64,000 bases of DNA, from assembly GCA_964424305.1 (NCBI GenBank), contig CAYRHW010000005.1, positions 5,746 to 69,745 of the forward strand. Reading direction: 5' to 3'. Position numbers and translations under genes: made by a program. This stretch comes from an uncultured Candidatus Saccharibacteria bacterium. Its GTDB lineage: Bacteria > Patescibacteriota > Minisyncoccia > Minisyncoccales > Staskawiczbacteraceae. Shown in pieces: positions 7,947 to 62,698 of the stretch (within the stretch, counting starts at the first letter, position 1; every line of letters starts with the position of its first letter). The notes beneath the pieces were generated by a model. It was not told where the DNA came from. It ran no database searches and saw nothing but the letters and a program-made list of their open reading frames with translations.

Positions 7947-8010
7947 ATATATTAGAAACCCATATATATACAAATTCTAACACAAGGGTAGTGCTTTATC
8001 AATCAATTTT

Positions 8011-11768: not shown

Positions 11769-13307
11769 TTACTTCATGTAGGTTATAACCTCCTGGCCTT
11801 CTGAAAGCCCTGAAAGAATCTCGATCAATCCCCCATCGGCTTGCAACCCGATTTGTACTTGAACCTCGTGGTATTTCTTTGTTTTTTTATCATCAATCAC
11901 TTTTACAAACTGGCCATTGGTTTTGTTAACAACCGCGGTTGAGGGGACAGCTAACACTCCCTGCTTTTCGGCAACTAAAATTGTCATATTAGCTGTCATG
12001 CCTGGTTTTACCTTCGGGACATTATCCAAACCTCCCGTAACCTTGTAATTAACAACACCAGAGACAACAGTAGACGCTGGATCTATGGTCATTACTTTCC
12101 CAGCAAAATGCTCATCTGATCCTAGGGCATCAAAAGTATAATCAATGGATTGCCCCATTTCTAGAGATGCGATATTTGCTTCACTAACATTTGCCTCTGT
12201 GTGTAAATCTGAAATGTTTTGTAATCCGATAACGACAGAGCCAGCCGAGGCTTGTTGGCCAACTTTCGCATCAACTAAAGTAATTGTTCCAGAGGCCGGA
12301 GCCATTAAAAGTAGATTATTTAAAGTTGCCCTAGCGGCATCAACCTGACCCTGAGCAGAAGTTACTTGAGCGATAGCTGCATCAATATCTGCCTGTCTAG
12401 GTGGAGCTTTCTTATACGCCAACTGATCTTGCGCCTTTAAAAGCGCGATCTTATACCCCAAGATGCTATCTTGGGCAGCTGTCGTGTTGGTCAGGGCCGT
12501 ATTAATATATGTTCTCTGAGTGTCTATGGATGTTCTATCTGTGGCAGAAACTCTAGAATAATATATTCCTTGGTCGCACATATCACGAACGATTCTTAAT
12601 GCGTCTGAAGTATCATTTAGGGCAGTTACTATATGGGAGATAGCAGACTCAGCATTCGCTGGGGTAAGATTAGCTTTTGCAATATCTAGATAGGACTTCG
12701 AGATATTCACACTATTGGCTATTACCGCCCTACTCTCTTGCACTCTAATGCCCTCTTGATCGGCAGTTCCAAAATAGTCATTTTGAAGCGTAACCACCGT
12801 AGCCAAAGCATTATACATTTTTGTATATGCATCATTTAGTGTATTTATCGAACTTGCGTATGAGGAATCTAGGTCTTGTTGAGCAGAAACCACGGTGTTC
12901 TCGATTGTTTTAACATCTTCCGTGGAAGCCCCTGCTAAAAGTTTGTCGTAATTTGCATTAGCCTGAGCAAGAGACCCCTGGGCAGTAGTTAAGCTGGCGC
13001 GAGCACCAGCTGTATCAAGTGCAGCCAACAGCTTGCCAGCGTATACTTGGTCCCCTTCCTTTACTAGTACTTGCCTTACCACGCCACTGCCTTGGAAACT
13101 AAGCTTAAGATCGATGCCGGAAACCACTTGGCCAGTTGTTAATACTGTTTGTTTTAAATCCTGCTTGGAAACAATGGCTGTTTGCATTCCATTGGGGCTG
13201 TTCTTTTTCCCGAACGCGAGATTCCATATACCGATAATAACAAGCAAGATTATTGCACCCCAGATTATTCTCTTCTTTGTAAAAAACTTTGGCAATTTAA
13301 ATTTCAT
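11769..13307 (-). CDS. HlyD/MacA-family membrane-fusion (periplasmic adaptor) protein
   Basis: N-terminal TM helix, a biotinyl-lipoyl-like segment (VKEGDQVYAGKLLAALD), a long coiled coil and C-terminal beta-barrel motifs. It is adjacent to the MacB-type genes. Confidence 0.8.
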   Translation of the reverse strand: MKFKLPKFFTKKRIIWGAIILLVIIGIWNLAFGKKNSPNGMQTAIVSKQDLKQTVLTTGQVVSGIDLKLSFQGSGVVRQVLVKEGDQVYAGKLLAALDTAGARASLTTAQGSLAQANANYDKLLAGASTEDVKTIENTVVSAQQDLDSSYASSINTLNDAYTKMYNALATVVTLQNDYFGTADQEGIRVQESRAVIANSVNISKSYLDIAKANLTPANAESAISHIVTALNDTSDALRIVRDMCDQGIYYSRVSATDRTSIDTQRTYINTALTNTTAAQDSILGYKIALLKAQDQLAYKKAPPRQADIDAAIAQVTSAQGQVDAARATLNNLLLMAPASGTITLVDAKVGQQASAGSVVIGLQNISDLHTEANVSEANIASLEMGQSIDYTFDALGSDEHFAGKVMTIDPASTVVSGVVNYKVTGGLDNVPKVKPGMTANMTILVAEKQGVLAVPSTAVVNKTNGQFVKVIDDKKTKKYHEVQVQIGLQADGGLIEILSGLSEGQEVITYMK

Positions 13308-21842: not shown

Positions 21843-22787
21843 TCAGTCCTTGATCTGCTCGACCGGGGCGTTGGCCTTCTTCATCTCCGGATGCGGGCCG
21901 TCGGGCTTGAGCATCTGAGAAAGGTTGGTGTTTCCAACCATCTGCTTGACCTGGTCCGCGCTCGTAGAGTACGGGTACAGAATGAAGCAGTTGTTCGGAC
22001 CCATGGCCGCCTGACCCATCACGCGGATCTGGTGCCACATCAGGTACTCGGGAGCGCCGGCGAGCTGCTTCTTGATGATGTCGATGGACTCAGCCACCGC
22101 CTCGGCCTTCTTCAGCTCGACGAGCTTGTCGGCCGTCGCAATCTTGAGCTGGCCCTCACTACGCTTCAGGTCAGCCCGAACTTGAGCTTCCGCCGCCGCT
22201 TCCAGGAGCTGGATCTTCACCAACGATTCCTGGGCCTCGGTTATGCTCTTCGGCCAGTCGTAGTTGGTAATCTGTACATCCTCGATGGTCAGGGGCGTTT
22301 GTTTGGCCTCTTCCATCAAACGCTTGGCCACCTCGGTGGCGATCTTCGGGCTGTTAGCCACGGCCGTTTGTACGTCGGGCTGAACCTCAAAAAGCTGCCG
22401 GGGAATGGCCAGGACCTTCATCTGTAAAAACGTCGTGTAAAGTTGCTCGGCCGAGATGTCGTGCCCCTTGGCCGTGACCGTCTCGAACGCCTTGCGCAAC
22501 TGCTCGTCGTCTTCCGACGACTTGACCCTCACGGTGATGTCAACCCGCAGGTTGACCTTGCCTCCGACCAGGATGTCCAATTTCTCCTTGAAGGTTTGGC
22601 TGGTCGTCTCCAGGGTGTACATGTTGTCGTGGCCATAACAGGTGTGCCGGCCGGGCTTGAGGATGTCCTTCTCCCACCCGTTGGTGGTGCTGATCCGCCC
22701 GCGCTTGCCCTGGGGAACCGTCTCGCTGCATCCGACAGCGAAGGCCAACATCGAAACCGCCATTAGAATGCTCAGTGTTTTCTTCAC
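21843..22787 (-). CDS. SPFH/band-7 domain lipoprotein (GC-rich island)
   Basis: GTG start at 22787 with AGGAGA 6-7 nt upstream. The lipoprotein signal is VKKTLSILMAVSMLAFAVGC. The SPFH core is followed by TIEDVQITNYDWPKSITEAQES and an Ala/Glu-rich coiled coil (LLEAAAEAQVRADLKRSEG). Confidence 0.7.
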   Translation of the reverse strand: MKKTLSILMAVSMLAFAVGCSETVPQGKRGRISTTNGWEKDILKPGRHTCYGHDNMYTLETTSQTFKEKLDILVGGKVNLRVDITVRVKSSEDDEQLRKAFETVTAKGHDISAEQLYTTFLQMKVLAIPRQLFEVQPDVQTAVANSPKIATEVAKRLMEEAKQTPLTIEDVQITNYDWPKSITEAQESLVKIQLLEAAAEAQVRADLKRSEGQLKIATADKLVELKKAEAVAESIDIIKKQLAGAPEYLMWHQIRVMGQAAMGPNNCFILYPYSTSADQVKQMVGNTNLSQMLKPDGPHPEMKKANAPVEQIKD

Positions 22788-22862
22788 GTTTCTTCTCCTA
22801 TTCTCGTTTTCTGCGATCCGCCTAGCACAATGCTTACGGATTTTCACTTCTGGGTTGCTGCG

Positions 22863-23339
22863 TTACTTTTTCTCGACCGGTTGCGTCGCCGCAGAGTTAC
22901 GCTGACGAATCCTCTCGGCCTCGGCCTCCATGGCCTGGTCGAAATTCGTCAGCGCTTTCTCGTGTGGCTTGACTTCGGCGCGCTCCTTCAATTCGGCGCG
23001 CGCCTTGTCCATCTCGTCCTTAGTCGGCAGCTTTGTTTGCTGCAGGCGTTTCTGCTCGGCGTTTTGCGCCGGGTTTTCGTAGGTCGAGACGTTTGTTGTT
23101 GCGTCCTGCATGGCGTTCCACGCGAGGACTCCGCCGACGGCGAACAAGCCGACGACCACGATGGTCGCGATGATGGGGCCGATCGGAGACGGCGTCAGAA
23201 CCGTGTTCTTGCCCGCCGCCTCCACCTTGGTGCCGTATGCCAGCCACATCTTGGTGAGGCCCCACGCCACCAACACTGCCACCACCAACAGCACGATCCA
23301 GTACAGATTGCTCCAGATTAATGTTCCTGCTCCGATCAT
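22863..23339 (-). CDS. 2-TM membrane protein with charged coiled-coil tail, first gene of the SPFH operon
   Basis: Start at ATG 23339 (MIGAGTLIWSNLYWIVLLVVAVLVAWG) with an AGGAAAGGA RBS. The second TM is PIIATIVVVGLFAVGGVLAW. The tail is KDEMDKARAELKERAEVKPHEKAL. Confidence 0.6.
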   Translation of the reverse strand: MIGAGTLIWSNLYWIVLLVVAVLVAWGLTKMWLAYGTKVEAAGKNTVLTPSPIGPIIATIVVVGLFAVGGVLAWNAMQDATTNVSTYENPAQNAEQKRLQQTKLPTKDEMDKARAELKERAEVKPHEKALTNFDQAMEAEAERIRQRNSAATQPVEKK

Positions 23340-23475
23340 GATGCGTTCCTTTCCTAAAAAAGTCCACTGGTTTATGCAAACAGATTCCGTTCTGAAAACG
23401 TTTGTTCTATAAATGTCTCCTAAATGGAAATGTACTATTAATGACGACACACATCGCCATTAACCTATCGTCGTG

Positions 23476-23505
23476 ATTATAGCACACAATTCAAACTATT
23501 GTCAA
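23476..23505 (-). promoter_or_regulatory. sigma70-type promoter of the 2TM-SPFH operon
   Basis: Minus strand reads TTGACA (23500-23505), an 18-nt spacer, then TGCTATAAT (-10 at 23476-23481). Confidence 0.55.
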
Positions 23506-23540
23506 TATCGCGACGGCAACAATCTACCTCTTATGATATA

Positions 23541-23572
23541 TATGAAAAGTTCCCATACCGGAGTATGGGAAC
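23541..23572 (-). terminator. rho-independent terminator of Cys-rich mini-gene A
   Basis: A 10-bp perfect stem GTTCCCATAC-TCCG-GTATGGGAAC is followed by TTTTC on the minus strand. Confidence 0.75.
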
Positions 23573-23596
23573 ATGTTGTGTTTTGCAGCAAAGTTG

Positions 23597-23809
23597 TCAG
23601 GCCACGGTCTGGCCCTCTGGTGTTATAAACCAGAATCCGACATCCGGTCGGCGCGTGCTTTTGCAGGGACCGAGATGCCCCTTTGGAAGGTTGCAGACAA
23701 CCGGGTGGCTTGGATGTAATGAGACACAAAGTGGCTCACTGCAAACACCACACCGACAGTCTCTGGGTACGGCGGGGACAGCGACCGATATTCCGCACAA
23801 ATGACTCAC
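23597..23809 (-). CDS. Cys/His-rich mini-protein A (70 aa), unknown family
   Basis: GTG start with AAGGAG 6 nt upstream, plus its own promoter and terminator. It shares the core C-x-C-G-V...L-C-x-S-L-x-P-x2-P-V-x-C-N-x2-K-G-H-x-G-x-C-x2-T-x2-P-x2-G-x-W with the ORF at 23976-24182. Confidence 0.6.
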   Translation of the reverse strand: MSHLCGISVAVPAVPRDCRCGVCSEPLCVSLHPSHPVVCNLPKGHLGPCKSTRRPDVGFWFITPEGQTVA

Positions 23810-23871
23810 TCTTCGCTCCTTCGAACTAAAGGTACTATGATATCAGGTCGACTCCCGACCCGAACGTTAAC

Positions 23872-23899
23872 ATTATATCAAATATAAAGACGGTGTCAA
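23872..23899 (-). promoter_or_regulatory. sigma70-type promoter of mini-gene A
   Basis: Minus strand reads TTGACA (23894-23899), a 16-nt spacer, then TATAAT (23872-23877). Confidence 0.55.
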
Positions 23900-23910
23900 T
23901 GATAGGCTGT

Positions 23911-23946
23911 GGAAAAGAGAAGGTCCAGTACATGCAGTACTGGACC
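23911..23946 (-). terminator. rho-independent terminator of Cys-rich mini-gene B
   Basis: A 10-bp perfect stem GGTCCAGTAC/GTACTGGACC with a 5-nt loop is followed by TTCTCTTTTC on the minus strand. Confidence 0.75.
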
Positions 23947-23975
23947 ATTTGTTCGTTACTTCCCCGAAAGGAAGT

Positions 23976-24182
23976 CTAGGTCAGGATCGGATCGCCGGCC
24001 TTCTTTTGCCAGATCCCTAGCTCGGGGTGCAAAGTGTTCCGGCACCGTCCCTTGTGACCCTTCTTTCGGTTGCAGGCAACCGGCCTCATCGGCTGCAAGC
24101 TGCCACACAGCTCTACCCCACACTTGCACTTCGTGCTCGTGAGGTTCTCCAGCATGTGTTTGTGGCCACTCTTTTCCTTCAT
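23976..24182 (-). CDS. Cys/His-rich mini-protein B (68 aa), paralog of A
   Basis: ATG start with a GAAGGAG RBS. The core is CKCGVELCGSLQPMRPVACNRKKGHKGRCRNTLHPELGIW. Confidence 0.6.
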   Translation of the reverse strand: MKEKSGHKHMLENLTSTKCKCGVELCGSLQPMRPVACNRKKGHKGRCRNTLHPELGIWQKKAGDPILT

Positions 24183-24245
24183 CTTCTTACTCCTTCTGAT
24201 TCCAGATTGCCTAAAACCTAAACCAAAATCTAACTGAATGATATA

Positions 24246-24273
24246 ATTATAGCATATATATCTAAGTTGTCAA
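24246..24273 (-). promoter_or_regulatory. sigma70-type promoter of mini-gene B
   Basis: Minus strand reads TTGACA (24268-24273), a 16-nt spacer, then TGCTATAAT (-10 at 24246-24251). Confidence 0.55.
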
Positions 24274-24344
24274 ACCAAGATGCTTTATTTAAAAAAAGAG
24301 AGCTCAGCACATATAGCGCCAAGCCCTTTCTCTTTGAATTAATC

Positions 24345-24626
24345 CTACGGAATATTGCTTTGGATTACTTCCCTTAGGAGTTTTCTCCATCGGCCGACAT
24401 GGATGAAAGAACGAATAGCAAGTGCTATCAATATAACTTCCATCAGAATGAATGGCCAACTGCTCTTCAAATCAACCAGGCCACCACCCAAGAGAATAAT
24501 ATGAAAGATTGCCGTCATAATCGTACATCCAACAAACGCAATGGCGACTTTTAGTGTGTCAGTAATGTAGGCCCCTAACCAAGCACTAATCGCCCTCTTG
24601 TTAAGGAGCATTGTGAGTAAAAACAT
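24345..24626 (-). CDS. small membrane protein (about 90 aa), start uncertain (24626 or 24611)
   Basis: Two or three hydrophobic helices (VAIAFVGCTIMTAIFHIILLGGG, WPFILMEVILIALAIRSFI). It overlaps the purC-purE stop. A hairpin plus T7 lies downstream at ~24290-24340. Confidence 0.45.
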   Translation of the reverse strand: MFLLTMLLNKRAISAWLGAYITDTLKVAIAFVGCTIMTAIFHIILLGGGLVDLKSSWPFILMEVILIALAIRSFIHVGRWRKLLREVIQSNIP

Positions 24627-26070
24627 CTCTCTTAACCGGCTTTGAAGTTCGAGGCTTGACCGGTGGCAACTCGCCACTTTCAATGCGCTCAAGCAACTCA
24701 GCCAACCCTGCCGGACCAGTGTAGGCCTGGCCAGTCATTTCGTTAAAGATTACGGGCTGACCCGGAATCCGCAAAATGGAAAGCTGAGCGGCCAACAAGT
24801 CAATATCATCCGCCTCGCCCAGGGCGACACCAGCCACTCGGATGTTTCGGTCGAAATACCGAGCCCAAGCATCAATGATCCCTGGTAAAGCAAGGGCCTT
24901 GCCACCAACTCCAATCACCACGTCGTATTCGAGTAATTCCTCGGTCTCAGTGAGACGCATTACGTCCCAGGGATTCCGATGACAACTCATGACATGGACA
25001 TTGACGCTTTCGTCACTGAAATTCCCGGCCATCCTGACTTTGGGCAGATCGGTCTCACTGCCACAAACAATCAAGACTTTCTTGGCCGGTCTTTCCAGAA
25101 CAGCAACGTGCATTACGCTGCTCAAGTATTGTTCAATGGTTCTCCCAGTCAACCGCCAGAAAATGTAACGATAGGTCTGCGTTGTCTGATCAATGAGGTC
25201 CTGGGGAATAACCATGGCGTGAGCCTTGGCGACATCATCGGGACTTTCGGGTTTAAGTTTGTTGATTCCCTGGCCAATGCCCCAATTTCTGACAAGTTGT
25301 TTGTCTTTTGGCGAGGGAGATTTCCTGCCAGTAGCGGGTGTCCGGCTTTCCAGCCACTCACTACGGTCCAGAAAACGACAGGAGTCGGGCGTGCCGACCT
25401 CATCGCAAACCGTACCATCTTCAGCAAGTTCGAATTTCCCATCTCCCAATATGATGCCATTCTTTATGGCGATGTCAGAAATGATCTGGAAAATCTGCGA
25501 GAGTAAAATTGTGTGCTGAGGATACTTTTTCCTGACTTCGTCAGCCGACATATGTTCATCATGGCCCTCTTCGGCCTTGGTTGTCGGCGTATCAAGAATG
25601 AACGGAAGTTTATCGCCATCCTGCAACCCCGGCATAAGCCGATGGCCACAGATCTGCCCGGTTTCATCATAGGCGGTCTTCCCAGAACCCAACAGAAGAT
25701 AACGGCCGATAAACTCGATCGGCGCCATTTTCTTTTTGCGAACAACCATTGCCCGCGACTGCAAGTCAATATTGCCACGTAAATTCTCTGGCAAATACTT
25801 ATCAATGTCCGCTCCAGCGGCAACGAAGTGAGTTTTGATCCCAAATTCCGAAAGGATGTTAAGCCAGAAATGATTTATTGCGTTCAAAACAATCCCCTTC
25901 AAAGGGACCAGGGCATTAAGAACGAAATCAAAGATACTGATTCCATCCGTTGCCACTACCAATAGGTTGCCATCGGGCAACTCGTAGGTGTCGCGGACTT
26001 TACCGCGAAATAGCAATGTTAATCCTGGTAGCAGTGCTACCCCGGCTCTTGCCGGTGAAAGTGTGGCCAT
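24601..26070 (-). CDS. bifunctional SAICAR synthetase / AIR carboxylase-type protein (PurC-PurE fusion)
   Basis: The N-terminal ~310 aa are PurC-like (LLFRGKVRDTYELPDGNLLVVATDGISIFDFVL). The C-terminal ~170 aa are PurE-like (KVLIVCGSETDLPKV, VHVMSCHRNP, VVIGVGGKALALPGII). Confidence 0.75.
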   Translation of the reverse strand: MATLSPARAGVALLPGLTLLFRGKVRDTYELPDGNLLVVATDGISIFDFVLNALVPLKGIVLNAINHFWLNILSEFGIKTHFVAAGADIDKYLPENLRGNIDLQSRAMVVRKKKMAPIEFIGRYLLLGSGKTAYDETGQICGHRLMPGLQDGDKLPFILDTPTTKAEEGHDEHMSADEVRKKYPQHTILLSQIFQIISDIAIKNGIILGDGKFELAEDGTVCDEVGTPDSCRFLDRSEWLESRTPATGRKSPSPKDKQLVRNWGIGQGINKLKPESPDDVAKAHAMVIPQDLIDQTTQTYRYIFWRLTGRTIEQYLSSVMHVAVLERPAKKVLIVCGSETDLPKVRMAGNFSDESVNVHVMSCHRNPWDVMRLTETEELLEYDVVIGVGGKALALPGIIDAWARYFDRNIRVAGVALGEADDIDLLAAQLSILRIPGQPVIFNEMTGQAYTGPAGLAELLERIESGELPPVKPRTSKPVKRDVFTHNAP

Positions 26071-26256
26071 AAAGGCTCCTTTCCTGATTCCTCTTAGGAA
26101 TCTTCTAATCGTTCTTTAAAAGATCGGTCATTATACTGCAAGTAAACTTTAATAAAATAACGGGGGGATGTCAACGTTAGGTGAATATATTTTCCAAGAA
26201 AAAAGCCCTCTGTCGGAACAAAAGGGCCTCATACTCTTATCTTTAGAACAGCGGGG

Positions 26257-27399
26257 TTATCGAACTCCAAGCGTTGCACCCACGAACTCTATGCCTTTCG
26301 GTTCAATCACAACCCTTTTCTCATCACTTTTCTCAATATGTCCAGCATAGAATACCTCGAAGGGCATTTCGTGCTCTTTGAGCATATCCCAGATTCTGGG
26401 CACATCATCCTGGGGTACGTAAATGGTAAAGCCAGCGCCCATATTGAGGTTACCATATGCCTCAAGATCATCGACTGGTCCCTGGGCTTGGATAAAATCG
26501 AAAATGGGAAGCTGTTTTGGTAGGACTTCAATGACGTAGGTGAATGGGTTTGCTGCCCGCATAAGCTTACGCCAACCATGCCCAGTAATGTTGACTGCGT
26601 AATTGATGTCGATGCCAAGATCGAGACACTGCTCAATAAATGCCACGTAAAGGTGCGTTGGATCAAGCAACACCTCACCGTACATTCTTCCGTCGCTGAG
26701 TCTGGTGAGATATCCTTCGGGAAGGTTATCAGCAATTTTTCTTGCCATCGTTAGGCCATTGGCCCCGATACCCGAACTGGCAAGAAAAATGATAGCGTCG
26801 CCATGTTGAATGTTGACGGGATTTATCAACCGTTCCCTCGGTTTCACAATACCCATCGCCGAACCAGAAAGGACAGCGGTCCCGGGCGTGATAATGCCTT
26901 TAAGGGTTGGGGTCTCTCCCCCACCCCAGACACATCGCACAAGTATGCATGCTTTTTTCCAGCCATCGATAAGATCATGGCATCGCTGTTCGTCATCAAA
27001 CCATCTCGAATCACCAACAGCAAGATGCATCGCCACAGAAAGTGGCAGTGCGCCAAGGGTGATCATGTCATTGACAATCATCGCCACGGCGTCCTGTGCG
27101 ATTTGATCGTAACACGTTCTTCCCAATACACCTTGGATTGCGCTGGCAATTCTCATCTGCCCTCTAAATGCATCGGCAACAAGGTTCTTCGTACCAAGAC
27201 CTTCTTCAACATGGGCGAGGAAAGCCTCTCCGATGTCGATTAGATAGCAGCTCTCGCCACGAGACCAACCCACCTCGGAAAATCCAAAACGTTTCAAGCT
27301 GTTTACGGTCTTAAGTCCGGCCAATTGCGCCTTGCGCTTGAATGGGTCCATTGCGTCGTAATCAACGCCGACGGCAGCATAGGTCATTTTCTTTTCCAT
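26257..27399 (-). CDS. PurM/AIR-synthase-family protein (probable phosphoribosylformylglycinamidine cyclo-ligase)
   Basis: AIRS-family landmarks are VGVDYD, EGLGTKN, DAVAMIVNDMITLGALPL, GGGETP, SSGIGANG and ITGHGW. The start is at MEKKM (AAGGAG 8 nt upstream). It is longer and more divergent than canonical PurM. Confidence 0.6.
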   Translation of the reverse strand: MEKKMTYAAVGVDYDAMDPFKRKAQLAGLKTVNSLKRFGFSEVGWSRGESCYLIDIGEAFLAHVEEGLGTKNLVADAFRGQMRIASAIQGVLGRTCYDQIAQDAVAMIVNDMITLGALPLSVAMHLAVGDSRWFDDEQRCHDLIDGWKKACILVRCVWGGGETPTLKGIITPGTAVLSGSAMGIVKPRERLINPVNIQHGDAIIFLASSGIGANGLTMARKIADNLPEGYLTRLSDGRMYGEVLLDPTHLYVAFIEQCLDLGIDINYAVNITGHGWRKLMRAANPFTYVIEVLPKQLPIFDFIQAQGPVDDLEAYGNLNMGAGFTIYVPQDDVPRIWDMLKEHEMPFEVFYAGHIEKSDEKRVVIEPKGIEFVGATLGVR

Positions 27400-27557
27400 C
27401 TCTTTTTCTCCTTTCTGGAAATATTCACTTTTCAAATTGCATAGTTAGCCAAAATATATTTTAAGGCTACGTATAGATAAAATTACACTACTTTGTTGGG
27501 AATGTAAATAAAAAAAATCGCCGGGGGGTGAGTCCAGCGACATTGTTTTTTTCAAAA

Positions 27558-30594
<3,037 letters not shown>

Positions 30595-30758
30595 AGGGAC
30601 CTCACTTTCTTTTTGTGTGGTTAAACAAAAAAATGTAAAAGGGCATAAATTCTTTTTTTCACATTACCTTAAAACTAAATGGCAAGTCAAATAAAAAATG
30701 CAAAAGAAAAGGCCTAGAAGCTTTCGCGTCTTGACCTTTGTGAGTTTGTTGAATCCTA

Positions 30759-32381
30759 TCAGTGAGCGAAAAATCCTCGAGCCTCAATGTCCGGTAACTG
30801 GAGGAGCAGGACACCGTTCCGCTCGCAGAGTGCTTGGACTTTTTCGTCGCCGATCTTGCTGCCGCTGGTGCTGAAAATGGCCGTGATGCCGGCGTCAATC
30901 AAAATCTTGACAGCATCCGTGTACGGGAAGAACGAATCACTGCAAGCAACGGCGCCTCGCAGCATACCCGCGTGTTTGGCATCTCTCGCCCGCATGACAG
31001 CCAACTTGGCGGCCCAGACACGAGCCTGCTGGCCCACGCCGTTACCGATAAGCATGCCATTCTTGACAATGGTAATGGTATTGGAATTGGAGGTCGCACA
31101 GACCGCCCAGGCTAAGGCCAGGTCGGTCACGATTCTGTCAAAATTCTTGGGCTTGTCCTCAAACGCCAACGCTTTGTGGTCGACGAGATTGGGGATATAT
31201 GTGTAGTTCGGCTGGACGATGAATCCTCCACGAACCTGCCGGAGACGTGGCGTGGTATCAAGCGATGCACAGTCGGCGAGTGCATGGGAAATCATCAATC
31301 GGCAACGTCCACCCTTACGTTCGAAAAATGCGCCGACGCCTTCGGTGAAAGCAGGGGCGACGATGCCATCGAACTTCTGCACCTTGCCCTTCTTCATGCC
31401 AGCGGTAACCATGATTTCCGCCAACTCTTCATTGATCGGAAAATTGGTCATTACCCAACCACCGAATACAGCGAGGCTGTCGCCTTTCACCACGGCCCTG
31501 ACGACTTCCTCGCGATCACCGACAGCGGCTCCGCAGGGATTGCCGTGCTTGACGGCGACGGCAATGCGCGGAATGGTGCCGAAGTTTGTTTGGAATATTG
31601 CGACAATGTGCGTCAACGTTTGCAACAACCGGTCGATATCGGTCCAGTTGCAATAGCCTAAGGGAGCACCTTCAAGCAACAGGATCTTGTCCAGCGCGAG
31701 GGGGTCATCGTTACCGGTAGAAAAAAGTCCGGCCGGCGACTGTGGCCCGTTTTCGCCCTTGGGGATACCAACAGCCTTCTGACCGAGAATCCCGTTGAAC
31801 TGGCCGTTGCCGTGGAAAATCGCCGAAGTGGCGACGTATGTTGCCACCTCAAATTCAGCAATAGCACGCAACGATTGTATGGTCTCAGCGGGTACCTCTC
31901 CCTGAGTTTCCAAAATGTGGAGAATGTATTCCCTGTCCTGCATCCGGCAGATAACGATTCTTCCGCCCTTGGCAGCCGAACGAACCATGCACGGTCCGCC
32001 AATATCGGTCATATCGACTACCGAGTCAATGGTGGCACCGAGCTTCGCGATTGCCATGGCTAACGGATAAAAATCGCAGACTACCATACCGATAATGGGA
32101 ATATTCAACCCTTCCAGCTCGGCAATATCTGCCGGCTTCTTAAGGTCTGCTAATAGCGCGGCGTGCACCTGTCGCGACAAGGTCACGACACGGTGACCAA
32201 GGATGGGGCCACCTCCGACGAGTTCAGCCACGTCCTTGACTGGCACACCCGCCTCGGTCAATGCCTTGGCTGTTCCTCCGGAGCTGATAATTCTCCATCC
32301 TAATTTCACCAATCGTTGCGCGAACTCCACAACGCCTTTCTTGTTATAAACTGAGATTAATGCCCAGCGTTCTGCACTCAC
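30759..32381 (-). CDS. purH: bifunctional AICAR transformylase / IMP cyclohydrolase
   Basis: GTG start with a GGAGA RBS. The N-terminus is MGS-like (ALISVYNKKGVVEFAQRLVKLGWRIISSGGTAKAL). Also contains VAVKHGNPCGAAV and a C-terminal FFAH. Confidence 0.9.
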   Translation of the reverse strand: MSAERWALISVYNKKGVVEFAQRLVKLGWRIISSGGTAKALTEAGVPVKDVAELVGGGPILGHRVVTLSRQVHAALLADLKKPADIAELEGLNIPIIGMVVCDFYPLAMAIAKLGATIDSVVDMTDIGGPCMVRSAAKGGRIVICRMQDREYILHILETQGEVPAETIQSLRAIAEFEVATYVATSAIFHGNGQFNGILGQKAVGIPKGENGPQSPAGLFSTGNDDPLALDKILLLEGAPLGYCNWTDIDRLLQTLTHIVAIFQTNFGTIPRIAVAVKHGNPCGAAVGDREEVVRAVVKGDSLAVFGGWVMTNFPINEELAEIMVTAGMKKGKVQKFDGIVAPAFTEGVGAFFERKGGRCRLMISHALADCASLDTTPRLRQVRGGFIVQPNYTYIPNLVDHKALAFEDKPKNFDRIVTDLALAWAVCATSNSNTITIVKNGMLIGNGVGQQARVWAAKLAVMRARDAKHAGMLRGAVACSDSFFPYTDAVKILIDAGITAIFSTSGSKIGDEKVQALCERNGVLLLQLPDIEARGFFAH

Positions 32382-32528
32382 CTCTGTCTCCTAGTCCCTA
32401 TGAACTTGTCGAGGTACAACCTGGCTCGAGAACGTCTCAAGCCCTTACATAGACTAGACTACACCTAATTACAAAAAAAACAATAAAAAAAGAGCCCGCT
32501 GTCGACGGACTCGCTGTACCCCAGTGGG

Positions 32529-33059
32529 CTATATGCCAAACACTGATGATACAACCAGCAAAGATAGAGCGGCATAAATACCAGCGACGAAATCGTCAAG
32601 CATTACGCCTTTTGCGCTTTGCATTCTATCAAAAAATCTTGTAGGAGGGATCTTGGTAATATCGAAGAAACGGAAAAAAGCAAAGGCCAGCCCCAGAGCC
32701 AACCAAGTTAACTTAACTTGGATAAAAAGCAAAGGGAGACATGATGTCAGCATCCCAAAAACTTCGTCAATTACGATCTGGTTCTGATCGTGGACTCTTT
32801 GTTTCCCTTTTTGATCAATCATTTTACCTAATCCAATCTCAGCCTTGGGAACACACCACAAACCCAAAAGGAAAACTACTGCCATTACCAGCAGATAAGA
32901 AATGACTGTCCCGGCCTTAGCCAGCTCCAATGCCAGATAGCACAAGGGCAGAGAGAAAAAGCTACCATATGTTCCGCCCATCCCCTTCCCGAACATGGGT
33001 GGGATTAAACCGCAGTAAAACCAAGTCGCCATAAAAACTGCTGCCTTGTTTTTCATCAT
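32529..33059 (-). CDS. pgpA: phosphatidylglycerophosphatase A family membrane protein
   Basis: Contains FYCGLIPPMFGKGMGGTYGS, DQNQIVIDEVFG, FRFFDITKIPP and GVMLDDFVAGIYA. The start is at MMKNK (GGGAGGA RBS), 28 nt after the guaA stop. Confidence 0.7.
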   Translation of the reverse strand: MMKNKAAVFMATWFYCGLIPPMFGKGMGGTYGSFFSLPLCYLALELAKAGTVISYLLVMAVVFLLGLWCVPKAEIGLGKMIDQKGKQRVHDQNQIVIDEVFGMLTSCLPLLFIQVKLTWLALGLAFAFFRFFDITKIPPTRFFDRMQSAKGVMLDDFVAGIYAALSLLVVSSVFGI

Positions 33060-33087
33060 CTTTTCCTCCCATCTGTTTTGGAGACTT

Positions 33088-34716
33088 TCATCCCCATTCA
33101 ATTGTAGCTGGCGGTTTGTCTGAGGTTCTGTAAACCACGGCTCCAACTTCTGGAACTTCATTTGTAATTCTTTGAGAAATGCGTTTTATAAAATCCCAGG
33201 GTAATTCTGCCGCTTGAGCAGTGAAACCATTGACGCTCCATACCGCCCATAAGGCAACAACCACACCACTTACGGCATCGTCGCCCTTTGTACAAGTTGT
33301 GACTGATTGGGTGACCACTGCTCCGGCCTGCCAAATACCCGCGTAGAGATCTTGCTCTCGCAATCCCTTAATATAGATGTCGTCAATTTGGCGAGCAATC
33401 CTTAAGTTGTCGGCAGTAATCTGTCCCTCGATCCTTACAATCAAGCCGGGGCCAGGGAATGGCTGACGGACAAGGAGAGATTCCGGAACTCCAGCCGAAC
33501 GACCAATATCTCGACCCGTATCCTTAACGCAATCATCAAGCGGAGTGAGCTCCTCTACAGAAAATCCCAAACCTACATTGTGGTGAAGTTTGATTTGGGC
33601 CTTCGCCGCTTGCGTGGCATATCCCTGTCCACTTTCTGAAATGTCAGTGTAAAGCGTTCCCTGTGCTATAAAGCTGGCCCCAAACTCCTTGGCCTCTTCT
33701 TCAAGCACAGCTTTGTAAACGCTTCGCATCGCCACTCTCTTCTCTTTCATTGTTTCTTTTTCGCGTAAGACATCCAAAAACCTATCAGTTGCATCGACAA
33801 TCCTTAACTCAACCCAGTCTTGATTTGCAAAATACTCCAACACGTGGGCCTCATCATCCGGCCGATCGACTCCCCGGATGTAAACTGCCCTTAACTGTCC
33901 CTTCTTGCCAACGAGAGTAGCTTTCAAAAGATAGGCAACGGTCGATGAATCAGACCCACCGGATAGTGCCAACAGGACTTTTTTGTCGCCTATCTTTTCT
34001 CGTAGGGCAACTATCTTCTGTTGAGCCACCTCCTTGGCCGGATACTTGTCTTTGGCTCCGCAAATCCCAAAACAAAAGTTCTCGAAGATCTTGAGACCCT
34101 TCGTTGTCTCCGTCACCTCGGGGTGAAATTGCACCCCCCAAAGATGTCTATAATTTGCCGCTGCAACGGGAGAATTTTCCGTTTTGCCTAAAACAAAAAA
34201 TTCGCTGATAAGACTTCTTGAAATCGGGCTTTCGGGTTTTTCCACCATATCTCCGTGGCTTTCCAAAACCGGCATCCCATTTTCACAACCCCTCAAAATA
34301 CCACCCCAGTCAAGAATTGAAAGTTTATGTGTGCCGAACTCTCTTCTCGCTGATTGTCTAACGGAACAACCAATATGGTGTGCCCATAATTGGAATCCTA
34401 AGCAAATACCCAGAACTGGTATTCCTAAATCAAAAATACTGAAGTCAAATGGCAAAACATTTTGGTAGACAGAAACGGGGCCACCAGAAAGTATCAAGCC
34501 TGTCGGCCCGACCTTTTGAACATCGGCCGCTCTCACCTGGCTAGGATCTGCCACGAGGCAAAAAACTCCTAGCTTTTCTAGTGCTTGTTTAATTAAGTGG
34601 TCAAACTGACTGCCCAAAGAAAACAATAAAAAGAGTTCGCTCGTCTTACGGATTGCCTTCTCTTCGGCGATTTCCCGAAGAACCCTTTCGTCAACCCTCT
34701 TTAATGTATGTATCAT
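33088..34716 (-). CDS. guaA: GMP synthase (glutamine-hydrolysing)
   Basis: The GATase domain has GICLGFQL and GVQFHPE. The ATP-PPase domain has ALSGGSDSS. The C-terminus ends PPATIEWG. Confidence 0.9.
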   Translation of the reverse strand: MIHTLKRVDERVLREIAEEKAIRKTSELFLLFSLGSQFDHLIKQALEKLGVFCLVADPSQVRAADVQKVGPTGLILSGGPVSVYQNVLPFDFSIFDLGIPVLGICLGFQLWAHHIGCSVRQSARREFGTHKLSILDWGGILRGCENGMPVLESHGDMVEKPESPISRSLISEFFVLGKTENSPVAAANYRHLWGVQFHPEVTETTKGLKIFENFCFGICGAKDKYPAKEVAQQKIVALREKIGDKKVLLALSGGSDSSTVAYLLKATLVGKKGQLRAVYIRGVDRPDDEAHVLEYFANQDWVELRIVDATDRFLDVLREKETMKEKRVAMRSVYKAVLEEEAKEFGASFIAQGTLYTDISESGQGYATQAAKAQIKLHHNVGLGFSVEELTPLDDCVKDTGRDIGRSAGVPESLLVRQPFPGPGLIVRIEGQITADNLRIARQIDDIYIKGLREQDLYAGIWQAGAVVTQSVTTCTKGDDAVSGVVVALWAVWSVNGFTAQAAELPWDFIKRISQRITNEVPEVGAVVYRTSDKPPATIEWG

Positions 34717-34760
34717 TTCTCACCATTGCCTTTCTTGTCAATGTGCGGACCTGTTTAGTA

Positions 34761-34789
34761 AAACTATACCGAAAGCATAATACTGTCAA
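34761..34789 (-). promoter_or_regulatory. sigma70-type promoter of guaA-pgpA
   Basis: Minus strand reads TTGACA (34784-34789), a 17-nt spacer, then TAGTTT (34761-34766). Confidence 0.4.
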
Positions 34790-34791
34790 AC

Positions 34792-34831: not shown

Positions 34832-34993
34832 TTATCGTTTTCCTTCTTTGTGTGGCGTGTGTTTTCTGCAAGAGTTGCAGAACTTTTTCATCTCTAACTT
34901 CTTCTCTGCTGCTTTCTTTGATTTCTTTGTAAAGTAATTCACTTCTTTACAAGCGCTGCATTGTATTTTCGAAAACGGTTTTTTCTTTGCCAT
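34832..34993 (-). CDS. rpmG: 50S ribosomal protein L33
   Basis: Below the track length cutoff. My translation is MAKKKPFSKIQCSACKEVNYFTKKSKKAAEKKLEMKKFCNSCRKHTPHKEGKR (53 aa, CxxC...CxxC zinc ribbon). Confidence 0.85.
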   Translation of the reverse strand: MAKKKPFSKIQCSACKEVNYFTKKSKKAAEKKLEMKKFCNSCRKHTPHKEGKR

Positions 34994-35023
34994 ACTATTT
35001 TATTTTTATTTTATATTTTTCTG

Positions 35024-35297
35024 AGCCGATGGCCAGATTTGAACTGGCGACCTTTCCCTTCGCTTAAACCTCTTTTTAGAATAGTGCTTATAAGAGGGCT
35101 AGACTGTATCTTGAGCATATCCTTTCACAGGAATCAGCTCCCCTTTGTCAGTCGTTCGAGCGCCTTTCGGGCGCTACGGTCTTGGCCAGACATTGGCTAT
35201 TAACCGTGATTAGGGATTCATTATATGGTTTCCCGTATAATGGGCAGGGGTTTTGCGACCCACCATGGGAGTGCTCTACCAACTGAGCTACATCGGC
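35024..35297 (-). tRNA. tRNA-Thr (anticodon GGU) interrupted by a group I intron after position 36
   Basis: Exon 1 (35262-35297) is GCCGATGTAGCTCAGTTGGTAGAGCACTCCCATGGT. Exon 2 (35024-35060) is AAGGGAAAGGTCGCCAGTTCAAATCTGGCCATCGGCT. Joined, they give a 73-nt cloverleaf with acceptor GCCGATG/CATCGGC, anticodon loop AUGGUAA, T-arm GCCAG-TTCAAAT-CTGGC and discriminator U. Confidence 0.8.
35061..35261 (-). mobile_element. group I intron (IC3-like, ~201 nt) in the tRNA-Thr anticodon loop
   Basis: The 5' exon ends in U and the intron ends in G (...UUUAAGCG|AA). P2 is the hairpin CAUUAUACGG-GAAA-CCAUAUAAUG. P4/P5 are ACGGU...GCCA-AUGUC-UGGC-CAAG-ACCGU. P6 is GCGCCC-GAAA-GGCGC. P7 is GACUG/CAGUC with the J8/7-P7 block CAAGAUACAGUC (compare the canonical AAGAUAUAGUC). 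P3 is UCCCU/GGGGA and P9 is CCUCUU...AAGAGG. Confidence 0.8.
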
Positions 35298-35305
35298 ACG
35301 TAAAA

Positions 35306-35911
35306 CTAATTATTATATTTCTTAATGCTCGCTAAAATATGCTCTTTTAATTTTTTATTAGTAAAACTCATTGTCAAAACTCCATATTCACTTTTTTTCT
35401 TATAAGTCCCCCTACCCTGCGGCGGTACAACTGTTATTTTCCCGAGTTGTTTCCTTGTAATGCCGATTTGTTTCTTCCAGAAATTGACTGCTTTTTCTTC
35501 TTTGACATCGTTGAAAAGAATTAACCCATAAGAAAACTTTTTTTCTTCTGCCTGATATAATTTTCTTAAAAATTCTCTAAATTTTTTAATTAAAAACGGA
35601 TCTGTGTTGCTCACCCTAACCGACGTGTTATTGGGGCTTTTATCCCCCTCTCCCCAATAAATCCCCAACCCCATTCCCCTAAGCTCGACTTCTTCTTTAT
35701 TAAGCCTCTTTTTCAGCGTAAACGGATCTCCATCTGGGTTGTGTTTAATATAGGCGGCATCACTTAAATTCCTCTTTTGAATCTTGTATCTATGAAGCCA
35801 ATAATTCACTCCGCTTTCTGAATAACCGATGGAAGTGGCAATTTCAGCAGCAGATTTATGTTTGTTAATATACAAATCCGAAAGCCTATCAAATGATAAA
35901 TTATTATTCAT
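35306..35911 (-). CDS. free-standing LAGLIDADG-like homing endonuclease with N-terminal HTH
   Basis: 201 aa. The HTH is SAAEIATSIGYSESGVNYWLHRYKI. A single LAGLIDADG-type motif (GMGLGIYWGEGDK) is followed by VRVSNTDPFLIKKFREFLRKLY and NFWKKQIGI, as in LAGLIDADG_3-type proteins. It lies between tRNA-Tyr and the intron-containing tRNA. Confidence 0.6.
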   Translation of the reverse strand: MNNNLSFDRLSDLYINKHKSAAEIATSIGYSESGVNYWLHRYKIQKRNLSDAAYIKHNPDGDPFTLKKRLNKEEVELRGMGLGIYWGEGDKSPNNTSVRVSNTDPFLIKKFREFLRKLYQAEEKKFSYGLILFNDVKEEKAVNFWKKQIGITRKQLGKITVVPPQGRGTYKKKSEYGVLTMSFTNKKLKEHILASIKKYNN

Positions 35912-43327: not shown

Positions 43328-45022
43328 ATGAAGACGACGACGGCTGCTTGGTTGTTTGTATTTTTTGTTTTCGGATTCTCGGCCCAGGCTCAAGATATTC
43401 CTGGCGGAATCGTTTCTTCCAACGGCAAAGATGCCATCTATCTGGACTATCAGTTGTGCCAAGAAAGGAACCTGACGGCCGACCTTAAGGGGCCGGCAAT
43501 CACGGGACCATTGGCGATTTCAGAAGATGGATTGGTTCTGGCCTGGCTTCAGGGAAACAAATTCCTGACCTGGACGAGCCAAGATGAAAAACCCCGTCCT
43601 ATTGATAACAAATTCCCGCCTACTTTCGGAAAGATCAGAAACATGACACTTTCTCCGGAAGGTGTCCACCTTGCTTTTGAGTCTACCGAGAAAAACACCT
43701 CATTCTTCCTTGTCGAAGCTGGTAAAAGCCAGCCATCGAGATTGGGCGACAGTAGTATTTATCCAAAGTACTTCACGAGAATGGAGGAATATAACGCAAT
43801 CACAATGTCTTATGTTTCTCCCTACATTTCCTGGCGCTATGGGAACACAGGTTTCTACCCGCCCACCTTCCCCATTAGAACAAATGAAACAGTAGATTAT
43901 GCGCCGGGAAAAACCCACAGAGTTGGCGAAGTAACAGAAAGTGTTCTTGGAAGTATTTCAATACCCAATATAAGGGCCGGCCTGAAGGTAACGATCGAGG
44001 AAGCGCACAAGAAGTTCTCGATCAAGCGTGACGCCCACTTTATTGCCTGGCAAAAAGTCTCAACTGATCCCCTCTTCTTTGCCTTGATCTACAAGACAGA
44101 AAAGGGATGGGGACCAATTGAGATCAGAAGCACAGAGCCTCTTTCCTCAACCAATCCCCCCACCGGTCAAAAACCCGGAGTCTGGGAAATCCCTATTCTT
44201 TTGAAAGACTGCCAAAGCCTGGCCTGGAAGCCCGATGGCTCGCTCACCTACTTGAGCGAAGGAAAGGTCTTCTCAATCGAACAGAGATACATCGCAATGG
44301 GGATTGAAAACAGCGGTGTGAAAAAATACAGGGAGCCTGGAAACAGTATCCCGCAATTGGTCCCAGTTAACAATGTCATAAAGGTTACCCCCGAATTGGT
44401 CGCCGAAGGAATCGATGGCGATCGTCTGCACTGGGCCACCAATGACACTTTCCGCTTCCGAGGCAGAGAGGGCAGCCGACGCAACATCACCTCCTGGCAC
44501 AAGGGAGAGATGAAGAAGCTCTGCGCCGCCCCAGAGGAATTTTCCTACTGTGACCGTGCTCCCTTCAGCACTGTCAAACCCACCAACATCGCCGGAACTG
44601 TCTCGGGTAAAGACAAATCCGCCAAGGGTGGCGTGAGCACACAGAAAGGAAACTATCTTCTCTCTGTTGGGAATACCAGTATCAAATGGGAAAGCCGACC
44701 CGACGGTTATTTCAGAATTTGGGGTGGAGGAAAGGGTGATCACTATGCCCTCCCACCCGAATCCAATATCGATGATGTCTACGATCCTTCCAAATACGAT
44801 TTCAAGAAAATGCCGGACAGGTATACAACCGGAACTCCGCGTTTTGTTGACATCAAACCAAACCAAATCCTATTGCTCAAATCCAACAACAAATACACAG
44901 CAATCAAACCGCTGGAAGACAAAGATGGCGGACAAGCCACCCAAATGACCTACGAATGGAAATTCTGGGCAGCCCCTCCAATCATTTCGGCGAGAACAAA
45001 CTCTCCAACTGAGAGTAAATAG
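43328..45022 (+). CDS. GC-rich orphan: secreted protein (564 aa), unknown function
   Basis: The signal peptide is MKTTTAAWLFVFFVFGFSAQA. Repeated beta-strand-like segments (LAWLQGNKFLTWTS, LAWKPDGSLTYLSEGKVFSIE) hint at a beta-propeller. I recognise no catalytic motif. Confidence 0.6.
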   Translation: MKTTTAAWLFVFFVFGFSAQAQDIPGGIVSSNGKDAIYLDYQLCQERNLTADLKGPAITGPLAISEDGLVLAWLQGNKFLTWTSQDEKPRPIDNKFPPTFGKIRNMTLSPEGVHLAFESTEKNTSFFLVEAGKSQPSRLGDSSIYPKYFTRMEEYNAITMSYVSPYISWRYGNTGFYPPTFPIRTNETVDYAPGKTHRVGEVTESVLGSISIPNIRAGLKVTIEEAHKKFSIKRDAHFIAWQKVSTDPLFFALIYKTEKGWGPIEIRSTEPLSSTNPPTGQKPGVWEIPILLKDCQSLAWKPDGSLTYLSEGKVFSIEQRYIAMGIENSGVKKYREPGNSIPQLVPVNNVIKVTPELVAEGIDGDRLHWATNDTFRFRGREGSRRNITSWHKGEMKKLCAAPEEFSYCDRAPFSTVKPTNIAGTVSGKDKSAKGGVSTQKGNYLLSVGNTSIKWESRPDGYFRIWGGGKGDHYALPPESNIDDVYDPSKYDFKKMPDRYTTGTPRFVDIKPNQILLLKSNNKYTAIKPLEDKDGGQATQMTYEWKFWAAPPIISARTNSPTESK

Positions 45023-61816: not shown

Positions 61817-61879
61817 GTTTTCTTATTAGTTTAAATATTGTATCACAACCAAATCTTCAAAAAAAGAGGGTAAAAAATT

Positions 61880-61907
61880 ATTGACACAGCACATCAATTC
61901 TATATAA
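61880..61907 (+). promoter_or_regulatory. sigma70-type promoter of the dCTP deaminase-like gene
   Basis: TTGACA (61880-61885), a 16-nt spacer, then TATAAT (61902-61907). Confidence 0.55.
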
Positions 61908-61963
61908 TAAAGGATCTTTTCAATTAGTAATGTATTTTGACAATCAACAGAAAGGAGCCTCCT

Positions 61964-62641: not shown

Positions 62642-62658
62642 TAGCTATTTAAAACATC

Positions 62659-62691
62659 AAAAAAGCCATGCTTTCGAGCAAGGCTTTTTTC
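62659..62691. terminator. bidirectional rho-independent terminator between the convergent dcd and dCMP deaminase genes
   Basis: AAAAA-AGCCATGCT-TTCG-AGCAAGGCT-TTTTTT. Confidence 0.7.
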
Positions 62692-62698
62692 ATTTCTC

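Follow-up and report, generated by a model that had tools for sequence, protein, structure and literature searches.

A GC-rich cluster of purine-nucleotide genes of the candidate phyla radiation type in a Staskawiczbacteria-like genome

The 64,000-nucleotide stretch of contig CAYRHW010000005.1 analyzed here (the window) carries on its minus strand, between positions 24345 and 34716, eight consecutive open reading frames (ORFs), seven of which were assigned to a family by Pfam and NCBIfam: guaA, pgpA, purH, guaB, purA, purM, and a purC-purE fusion (purCE), the last being followed by a small hydrophobic ORF (Table 1). An original prediction had named the same eight minus-strand genes; all of them are present where it placed them, seven with the identity it gave. 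In a Staskawiczbacteria-like genome of about 38% GC, the block seems, as judged from its sequence, to be a functional-looking purine-nucleotide gene cluster of the type found in the candidate phyla radiation (CPR). PurM is predicted to convert formylglycinamidine ribonucleotide (FGAM) to aminoimidazole ribonucleotide (AIR); the PurE-like and PurC domains of the fusion would lead from AIR through carboxyaminoimidazole ribonucleotide (CAIR) to succinylaminoimidazolecarboxamide ribonucleotide (SAICAR); PurH would convert aminoimidazolecarboxamide ribonucleotide (AICAR) to inosine monophosphate (IMP); PurA would turn IMP into adenylosuccinate; and GuaB and GuaA would lead from IMP through xanthosine monophosphate (XMP) to guanosine monophosphate (GMP). 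The pathway span claimed previously, from AIR to IMP, was correct in that these late steps are represented, but too short, because PurM adds the step from FGAM to AIR.

NCBIfam equivalog cut-offs were passed only by GuaB and GuaA (Table 1). Since PurC, PurE, PurM, PurA, and PurH, five of the seven enzymes, score below theirs, they appear to be divergent versions: PurA lies just under the cut-off of NF002223 (375.7 bits, cut-off 402), whereas PurH (317 bits against NF002049, cut-off 402) and PurM (157 bits against TIGR00878, cut-off 236) do not reach the equivalog level. PurM aligns over approximately its full length to solved PurM chains (E = 2e-30). The PgpA-family protein likewise does not reach the Escherichia coli-type equivalog NF008288 (56 bits, cut-off 226). 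The translations of GuaA (catalytic cysteine motif GICLGFQ, FHPEV, and PP-loop SGGSDS) and PurA (GTP-binding motifs GDTGKGK and TTGRGIGP) have intact motifs, that of GuaB holds the catalytic cysteine loop GSICTT, and PurH contains the KH motif (AVKHGNPCG), its N-terminal SVSDK-type motif reading SVYNK. Nearly all window ORFs of at least 150 amino acids and several shorter ones were compared with Pfam, with ribosomal-protein genes assigned by synteny; none of purF, purD, purN/T, purL/Q/S, purK, or purB was found among the scanned ORFs, which bears out what had been claimed about the absence of other pur genes from the window.

The PurC domain of the fusion passes its Pfam threshold (Table 1), its best NCBIfam score (NF010568, 199.9 bits) being below the cut-off of 251, and it is a divergent CPR clade of PurC. 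The PurE domain covers positions 1-103 of the 148 positions of PF00731 and scores 30.3 bits against TIGR01162 (cut-off 149.6). An AlphaFold2 model of the fusion, built from an 18-sequence alignment, reached a pLDDT of 89.9 and a pTM of 0.89. In Foldseek searches, residues ~1-320 matched yeast ADE1 and Mycobacterium abscessus PurC (TM-score relative to target 0.81-0.86), and the C-terminal ~140 residues matched class I PurE (TM-score relative to target 0.58-0.65, root-mean-square deviation (rmsd) 2.5-3 Å). Class I PurE proteins carry the motifs SAHR and AAHLPG, and class II proteins SAHK and SNGLGP. The residues invariant in the fusion family include GS..D, SCHRN, and LPG, with the second histidine replaced (GGKA[LF]ALPG); the SCHR and ALPG loops are taken by us to resemble class I and not class II. 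A profile search of PDB sequences gave about 45-54 bits for class I PurE versus 34.5-34.8 bits for PAICS, the eukaryotic SAICAR synthetase/AIR carboxylase. The C-terminal domain is predicted to resemble class I PurE.

The fusion shares with PAICS the order of its domains, PurC being N-terminal and PurE C-terminal, and Foldseek aligned its whole chain to PAICS of human and insect origin (E = 2e-21 and 1e-19, respectively). It differs from PAICS in that identity is 18% and the rmsd of ~15 Å corresponds to a different domain packing; moreover, its PurC domain is of the long yeast/mycobacterial type and its PurE domain is closer to class I. The combination of class II PurE and PAICS-like packing is therefore not what the model of the fusion displays. 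Most likely the fusion arose independently of PAICS with the same domain order. As a compact, PAICS-like natural fusion, it is a protein on which PurE class and the requirement for the partner enzyme PurK could be probed.

About five short transcription units, guaA-pgpA, purH, guaB-purA, purM, and purCE with the small ORF, are a fair description of the block as far as sequence signals indicate. The guaA/pgpA and guaB/purA gaps, of 28 and 13 nucleotides (nt), respectively, contain no terminator, while spacers of 120-190 nt separate the units, each of which has its own ribosome-binding site. Most units close with an intrinsic terminator, none being detected by the terminator scan in the 164-nt purH-guaB spacer. 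A single pur operon is contradicted at this level by four internal or terminal hairpin/T-run terminators together with the spacers, in agreement with the earlier proposal of about five units. The promoters of the block are merely consensus-like: the best, upstream of purCE (26174-26146), comprises TTGACA, a 17-nt spacer, and TAAAGT (10/12 positions), and guaA is preceded by a TTGACA/TATAGT pair with a 15-nt spacer. Between 21.0 and 36.5 kb, 28 terminator-like sites were observed versus 16.2±4.4 in shuffled sequence, and 27 promoter-like sites versus 18.6±4.5, the latter a marginal excess. Rfam searches, at the gathering level for the window and at E <= 1 for 21.6-35.0 kb, identified no relevant riboswitch or leader. 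The small hydrophobic ORF has no Pfam family match and no homologue in the other loci compared with it, and it is only a candidate gene.

Canonical bacterial pur operons, such as purEKBCSQLFMNHD of Bacillus subtilis, resemble the block in clustering several purine-synthesis genes on one strand. The block differs from them in apparently having no single transcript, in containing neither the early steps nor purB, and in interspersing both IMP branches and pgpA; no purine, ZTP, or PRPP (phosphoribosyl pyrophosphate) riboswitch was detected. With the purine genes in metagenome-assembled genomes (MAGs) of CPR/Patescibacteria it shares the enzyme families and an organization in short stand-alone units and not one operon. 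It differs from them in gathering seven such genes in one 10-kb block; elsewhere among the loci examined, purCE or purH stands by itself or has one or two other pur genes beside it.

Table 1. Positions of the purine-nucleotide block, the adjacent GC-rich stratum, and the right border of the slot in the window (GC3, GC content at third codon positions; aa, amino acids)
Feature	Coordinates	Strand	Description	Evidence	GC3
Second GC-rich stratum	21843-24273	-	Left of the block, outside the earlier coordinates		
SPFH/Band-7 gene	21843-22787	-	Second stratum	PF01145 match	
Membrane protein gene	22863-23339	-	158 aa; second stratum		
Cys-rich small ORF	23597-23809	-	70 aa	No Pfam match	
Cys-rich small ORF	23976-24182	-	68 aa	No Pfam match	0.80
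Strong terminator-like hairpin	24299-24327	-	Ends the purCE-small ORF unit	12 pairs, then CTTTTTTTAA	
Small hydrophobic ORF	24345-24626	-	88-93 aa (88 aa in the Logan gene call); overlaps purCE end	ORF call only	0.45
purC-purE fusion	24601-26070	-	489 aa; N-terminal SAICAR synthetase, C-terminal PurE-like	PF01259 154 bits (cut-off 20); PF00731 37.5 bits (cut-off 30)	0.53
Terminator-like hairpin	26206-26225	-	3' of purM		
purM	26257-27399	-	FGAM cyclo-ligase/AIR synthetase, 380 aa, divergent form	AIRS_N and AIRS_C domains	0.50
Terminator-like hairpin	about 27510-27541	-	3' of purA	GTCGCTGG...CCGGCGA and eight T; read by eye, unlisted by the scan	
purA	27558-29048	-	Adenylosuccinate synthetase, 496 aa	PF00709 387 bits	0.47
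guaB	29062-30594	-	IMP dehydrogenase with CBS pair, 510 aa	TIGR01302 495.3 bits (cut-off 481.5); PF00571 x2	0.49
purH	30759-32381	-	AICAR formyltransferase/IMP cyclohydrolase, 540 aa, GTG start	PF02142 53 bits; PF01808 138 bits	0.63
Terminator-like hairpin and T-run	32492-32512	-	3' of pgpA	8 pairs, 5 of them G-C, then TTTTTTTATT	
pgpA-family membrane protein gene	32529-33059	-	176 aa	PF04608 100.7 bits (cut-off 28)	0.47
guaA	33088-34716	-	Glutamine-hydrolysing GMP synthase, 542 aa	NF000848 429.8 bits (cut-off 400); GATase, NAD_synthase-like, and GMP_synt_C domains	0.44
rpmG	34832-34993	-	Right border of the slot	PF00471 match	
tRNA-Thr(GGU) with insertion	35022-35297	-	Right border of the slot	Alignment to intron-less tRNA-Thr of relatives	

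The block stands out by its base composition: the window averages about 38% GC, and the region from 21.8 to 34.8 kb has 46-58% GC. The GC3 of 35 host genes was 0.363±0.032 (maximum 0.43), and that of the eight island genes 0.44-0.63 (z = 2.4-8.3; Mann-Whitney p = 6e-6), with purH having the highest value among the pur genes (Table 1). TGA stops end 4 of the 11 GC-rich genes versus 1 of the 37 other listed genes. Expression-linked codon bias was rejected as a cause of the high GC3, because the highly expressed ribosomal-protein genes rpsP, rplJ, rplA, and rplK, as well as fusA (encoding EF-G), are host-like. A nucleotide-metabolism cluster at 59896-63268 (-), comprising folA, thyA, tmk, an unknown gene of 207 aa, and a gene for a dCMP/cytidine deaminase, also has host-like GC3 (0.33-0.41 for the genes at 59.9-63.3 kb); folate-dependent dTMP synthesis is thus resident, unlike the purine genes. 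Two isolated GC3 outliers without a Pfam match, 49088-49588 (-) with 0.73 and 43328-45022 (+) with 0.54 (host mean 0.36), may be further foreign cassettes.

The compositional island had been proposed to begin at 24340. The deviation of the block is evident, but the GC-rich region starts at about 21,800, so that an SPFH module and two small Cys-rich ORFs also belong to it. This second stratum has a GC3 of 0.80 for three genes, namely those of the membrane-protein/SPFH module and the 68-aa Cys-rich ORF, and three sigma-70 promoters matching the consensus at 12/12 positions (at 23505, 23899, and 24273). Each of its Cys-rich ORFs is preceded by a TTGACA/TATAAT promoter whose -10 element is extended; hairpin terminators are located 3' of both ORFs and of the SPFH gene. 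The two Cys-rich ORFs are paralogues with the common motif C-x-C-G...LC...P-V-x-CN..KGH.G.C. The membrane-protein/SPFH module, which has an NfeD/stomatin-like arrangement, was also found as a GC3-rich islet at unrelated positions in two other Staskawiczbacteria-type genomes (loci L171, 9398-11023, and L173, 9449-10957; GC3 0.51-0.63 versus about 0.33).

A comparable excess of GC3 recurs in purine genes of other Parcubacteria. We compared 25 purCE/purH loci (22 purCE and 3 purH) with 33 trmD control loci, using the neighbourhood median as reference. GC3 exceeded this median in 21/25 purCE/purH loci, with a mean excess of +0.14 and a correlation with host GC3 of r = 0.49, versus 22/33 loci, +0.03, and r = 0.87 for trmD. 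When AT-rich loci were defined by a median GC3 below 0.43 and outliers by an excess of at least 0.15, purCE or purH was an outlier in 10/11 AT-rich Parcubacteria loci, as exemplified by L006 (gene 0.65, neighbourhood 0.31), L013 (0.61 and 0.35), L035 (0.70 and 0.37), and purH of L089 (0.49 and 0.23). In the AT-rich loci, 3.4% of genes deviate by at least 0.15, giving a binomial p of 2e-14 for 10/11. The literature searched contained no description of such a recurrent purine-gene GC3 excess in AT-rich Parcubacteria.

The purine enzymes of the block are, by sequence comparison, of CPR type. More than 120 homologues at least 50% identical to the PurC-PurE fusion were found, all with the same two domains, the named ones belonging to Staskawicz-, Colwell-, and Adlerbacteria and the "Parcubacteria group". 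PurH has at least 120 homologues at 51-63% identity, the best at 60-63% and the named ones among these from Staskawicz- and Buchananbacteria; overall, the named relatives of PurCE and PurH are Staskawicz-, Colwell-, Adler-, Kaiser-, and Buchananbacteria. Best matches of PurCE and PurH are 50-64% identical, and every name given is a CPR name except for one 'archaeon' record; when SPFH is included, the closest homologues are 50-71% identical, with one Petrotogales label as a further exception. Many of the homologues are named 'hypothetical protein' by NCBI. The SPFH protein belongs to a small family and is 62% identical to a member from Staskawiczbacteria RIFOXYC2_FULL_37. When one representative genome was taken for each GTDB species, Patescibacteria records were the only ones to contain the fusion. 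In a neighbour-joining tree of the PurC domain, the fusion family forms one group, apart from the actinobacterial outgroup and beside Wildermuthbacteria PurC.

Complete de novo purine synthesis to IMP has been reported for 32% of 399 CPR MAGs (PMC11608272), and particular CPR lineages have been described as being without this pathway (PMC11809585; PMC5220378). The premise that the lineage should be purine auxotrophic is an over-generalisation, as shown by that proportion and by the >120 homologues of the fusion. The cluster is insufficient alone: PurB is needed twice, and PurF, PurD, PurN, and PurL are also required. PurC and PurA are useless without PurB, and PurM is pointless without PurL, so the block needs genes beyond itself. 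In five loci examined (L014, L017, L031, L034, and L087) relatives keep purB beside purCE, and we infer by this analogy that the missing pur genes are most likely located elsewhere in this genome. The slot that holds the block in the window is occupied in the relative L014 by purB and purL beside purCE. The "partial pathway" that the original prediction saw is therefore probably an artefact of the window. In a CPR-like contig (L087, 6836-12838), a Transposase_mut gene directly adjoins purB, purCE, and purH.

Gene order around the slot was compared among 80 TrmD-anchored metagenome loci (TrmD identity 50-71%). The closest syntenic relative is Candidatus Staskawiczbacteria bacterium SO_2017_GW1_85 (Patescibacteria group, Parcubacteria group; L004/L014). 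The window and L014 have in common the order KH, trmD, tRNA-Tyr, orf201, tRNA-Thr, rpmG ... dinB, with protein identities of 83% for KH, 73% for TrmD, 49% for orf201, 85% for RpmG, and 72% for DinB; flank synteny and the 72-85% identity of flank proteins bear out the CPR host claimed before. Upstream, the order rnc-rpsP-KH-trmD is conserved among the TrmD-anchored loci. In several relatives, tRNA-Tyr/tRNA-Thr and rpmG are followed by an MFP/ABC/FtsX transporter and then by rplK-rplA-rplJ-rplL. In the window, the GC-rich block directly follows rpmG, and the next syntenic gene (MFP, 11769-13307) is 21 kb off. After rpmG, L014 (7969-19284) contains a different GC-rich set, comprising pyrF, an unknown gene of 256 aa, purCE (sharing 56% identity with that of the window), purB, purL (1256 aa), and two further unknown genes (GC3 0.68 and 0.77), beyond which lie the malic enzyme gene and dinB. 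L091 has, after rpmG, a purC that stands alone (343 aa) and has the GC3 of its host (0.33), and then tgt. Since the block deviates in composition and its locus varies between related genomes, lateral acquisition, as originally claimed, is plausible; the non-CPR source that had been implied is unsupported.

On balance, we lean toward the block being a mosaic of cassettes that were exchanged within the CPR and gathered in a permissive slot after tRNA-Thr and rpmG. The block and the GC-richer SPFH module would have arrived in this variable slot, downstream of trmD, tRNA-Tyr, tRNA-Thr, and rpmG, probably piecewise, by lateral exchange with other, GC-richer CPR bacteria and not from outside the radiation; the acquired genes would not yet have drifted to the AT-rich composition of the host. 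Such a mosaic is supported by the GC3 differences between units (0.63 for purH, 0.44 for guaA) and from the adjacent stratum. Several observations weigh against it. Within the CPR clade, the PurC-domain tree has a star-like shape and bootstrap values of 22-24% around the window sequence; it thus neither separates transfer from vertical descent nor demonstrates transfers. The best homologues are just 60-64% identical, no donor-like contig was found, and none of the contexts of the best PurH and PurCE matches (L006, L008, L087-L089, and L180) has the gene order of the window. No flanking direct repeats were detected between 20.5 and 36.5 kb, family scans of window ORFs revealed no integrase, recombinase, or transposase, and an IMG/VR scan with the fusion alignment yielded only PurC genes at 29-35% identity and no fusion-family phage contig. 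The binomial p given above overstates significance because the loci are not phylogenetically independent, and a persistent gene-specific force raising GC3, for instance biased gene conversion in frequently recombining genes, may instead be the source of the excess. The adjacency of purC(E) and rpmG in three related lineages, with 61-64% pairwise identity, would be expected under vertical inheritance too. A search for an allele with an empty site, or for a variant strain, yielded none: a single contig on record carries the neighbouring PG-binding protein, and the JGI purH variant P0122 has no record.

Alternatively, the genes may be ancestral to Staskawiczbacteria/Parcubacteria and may long have resided beside rpmG, subject to local rearrangement and loss, their GC3 being kept high not by recent arrival but by a process acting on these genes specifically, for example selection or GC-biased gene conversion. 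In favour of this reading, the clades that the enzymes form are CPR-specific; in the window, L014, and L091, rpmG is followed by purC(E), with PurC-domain identities among the three (61-64%) about equal to that with the best database match (67%); mobility genes and flanking repeats are absent; and a GC3 excess recurring in deeply diverged lineages is hard to fit to a single recent transfer. Nonetheless, at ~60% amino-acid identity synonymous sites should have equilibrated, and the excess spans 0 (L091) to +0.34 (L006); purine-gene GC3 tracks the host weakly compared with trmD; adjacent island units differ from each other (0.44-0.63) and from the stratum next door; and native nucleotide-metabolism and highly expressed genes show no excess. 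We regard vertical inheritance as the main rival, though rather unlikely. It had been stated beforehand that phylogenies placing these genes with vertically inherited CPR homologues would count against acquisition; the placement with CPR and not with non-CPR homologues was found, whereas vertical inheritance was not shown. Delivery as cargo by a phage, a plasmid, or an integrative element, in the style of auxiliary metabolic genes and with integration at tRNA-Thr, is very unlikely: the island does lie just downstream of two tRNA genes, one of which carries an insertion, with the mobile-looking orf201 between them, but no structural or replication genes were found either, the tRNA 3' end is not duplicated, rpmG separates the tRNA from the island, and the PurC sequences from IMG/VR are distant. 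Gain of a partial pathway by a nucleotide-auxotrophic CPR lineage from ordinary bacteria is largely refuted and highly improbable. Island GC is above that of the host, the PurC domain belongs to the 'long' type of yeast and actinobacteria, and the next GTDB matches after the fusion are stand-alone PurC proteins of Propionibacteriaceae; these, however, are 34-39% identical versus 50-64% in dozens of CPR genomes, actinobacterial PurA, PurM, and GuaA in the examined loci are 25-36% identical, all records that showed the fusion architecture were from CPR bacteria, and purine synthesis has been reported complete in about a third of the surveyed CPR MAGs. Joining of a GC-rich stretch from another organism to a CPR contig by chimeric assembly or contaminated binning is scarcely credible. 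Composition steps are sharp at about 21.8 and 34.8 kb, and the short contigs L002 and L003, identical to parts of the island, end inside it; however, independent ENA and Logan assemblies contain the sequence at 100% identity, and one of them, the 55.9-kb ENA contig L001, matches without a difference over 21.5 kb and crosses both junctions; the same proteins are recorded in NCBI (72.9-kb contig), JGI, and Logan, the junctions lie in ordinary intergenic spacers (terminator, then promoter), and GC-rich purCE, purH, and SPFH islets occur within long contigs of many other CPR genomes. The GC-rich block is no assembly artefact.

The exchanged-cassette mosaic that we favour resembles tRNA-adjacent metabolic islands in its deviant composition, its tRNA neighbours, and slot content that differs among relatives. 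Of the features of an integrase-mediated tRNA-linked island, the block has the deviant composition and is variably present at a site that is conserved; an integrase, att-like direct repeats, and mobility genes were not found, and rpmG lies between the tRNA and the island. An insert of ~200 nt (about 35061-35261) splits the tRNA-Thr gene itself after position 36 of the anticodon, just before position 37. U is the last base of the 5' exon and G that of the insert, which folds at -58.6 kcal/mol (z = -2.4); L014, L091, L093, and L109 have the same tRNA-Thr without it. Neither ARAGORN nor Rfam called the interrupted gene, and a group I intron was rejected as a model for the insert, with no Rfam match at E <= 1. 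Between tRNA-Tyr and tRNA-Thr, orf201 (35306-35911, minus strand, 201 aa) has no Pfam match; homologues 27-50% identical lie between or beside the same tRNAs in L014, L093, L095, L104, and L109. This position-variable gene adjoining an interrupted tRNA could be a homing-endonuclease-like element. Elsewhere, the window encodes a full-length serpin (PF00079, 417 bits; 6693-7973, minus strand) and a Kazal-type protease-inhibitor-domain protein (53236-54531, plus strand).

As a CPR purine gene cluster, the block is ordinary. Because its enzymes are CPR-type and common in the radiation, it speaks for an exchange of genes between CPR bacteria rather than for an unexpected new metabolic capacity. The dependence of CPR bacteria on hosts is usually judged by the presence or absence of genes in MAGs. 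Parcubacteria purine genes are easily under-called in this way because they are divergent, mostly fall below equivalog cut-offs, and have homologues named 'hypothetical protein', and a 64-kb view can mimic a 'partial pathway' that relatives complete elsewhere or in the same slot. The one feature worth following up is the recurrent GC3 excess of purine genes across AT-rich Parcubacteria, a foreign-composition signature that is reproducible across many AT-rich CPR genomes; its occurrence at many AT-rich Parcubacteria loci suggests that, in this group, small and self-contained expression cassettes keep purine genes in circulation. As a tentative extension, to which we give less than an even chance, the purine genes and SPFH-type modules of AT-rich Parcubacteria may belong to a GC-rich pool of one- or two-gene cassettes, each with its own promoter and terminator, repeatedly exchanged among CPR bacteria and gathering at a small number of permissive slots. 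In that case, whether these episymbionts are purine prototrophs or auxotrophs would be labile through horizontal transfer and not fixed by genome reduction. If the signature reflects ongoing transfer within the CPR, nucleotide self-sufficiency would be a trait that is gained and lost, which would affect the metabolic dependence and host range inferred for these bacteria.

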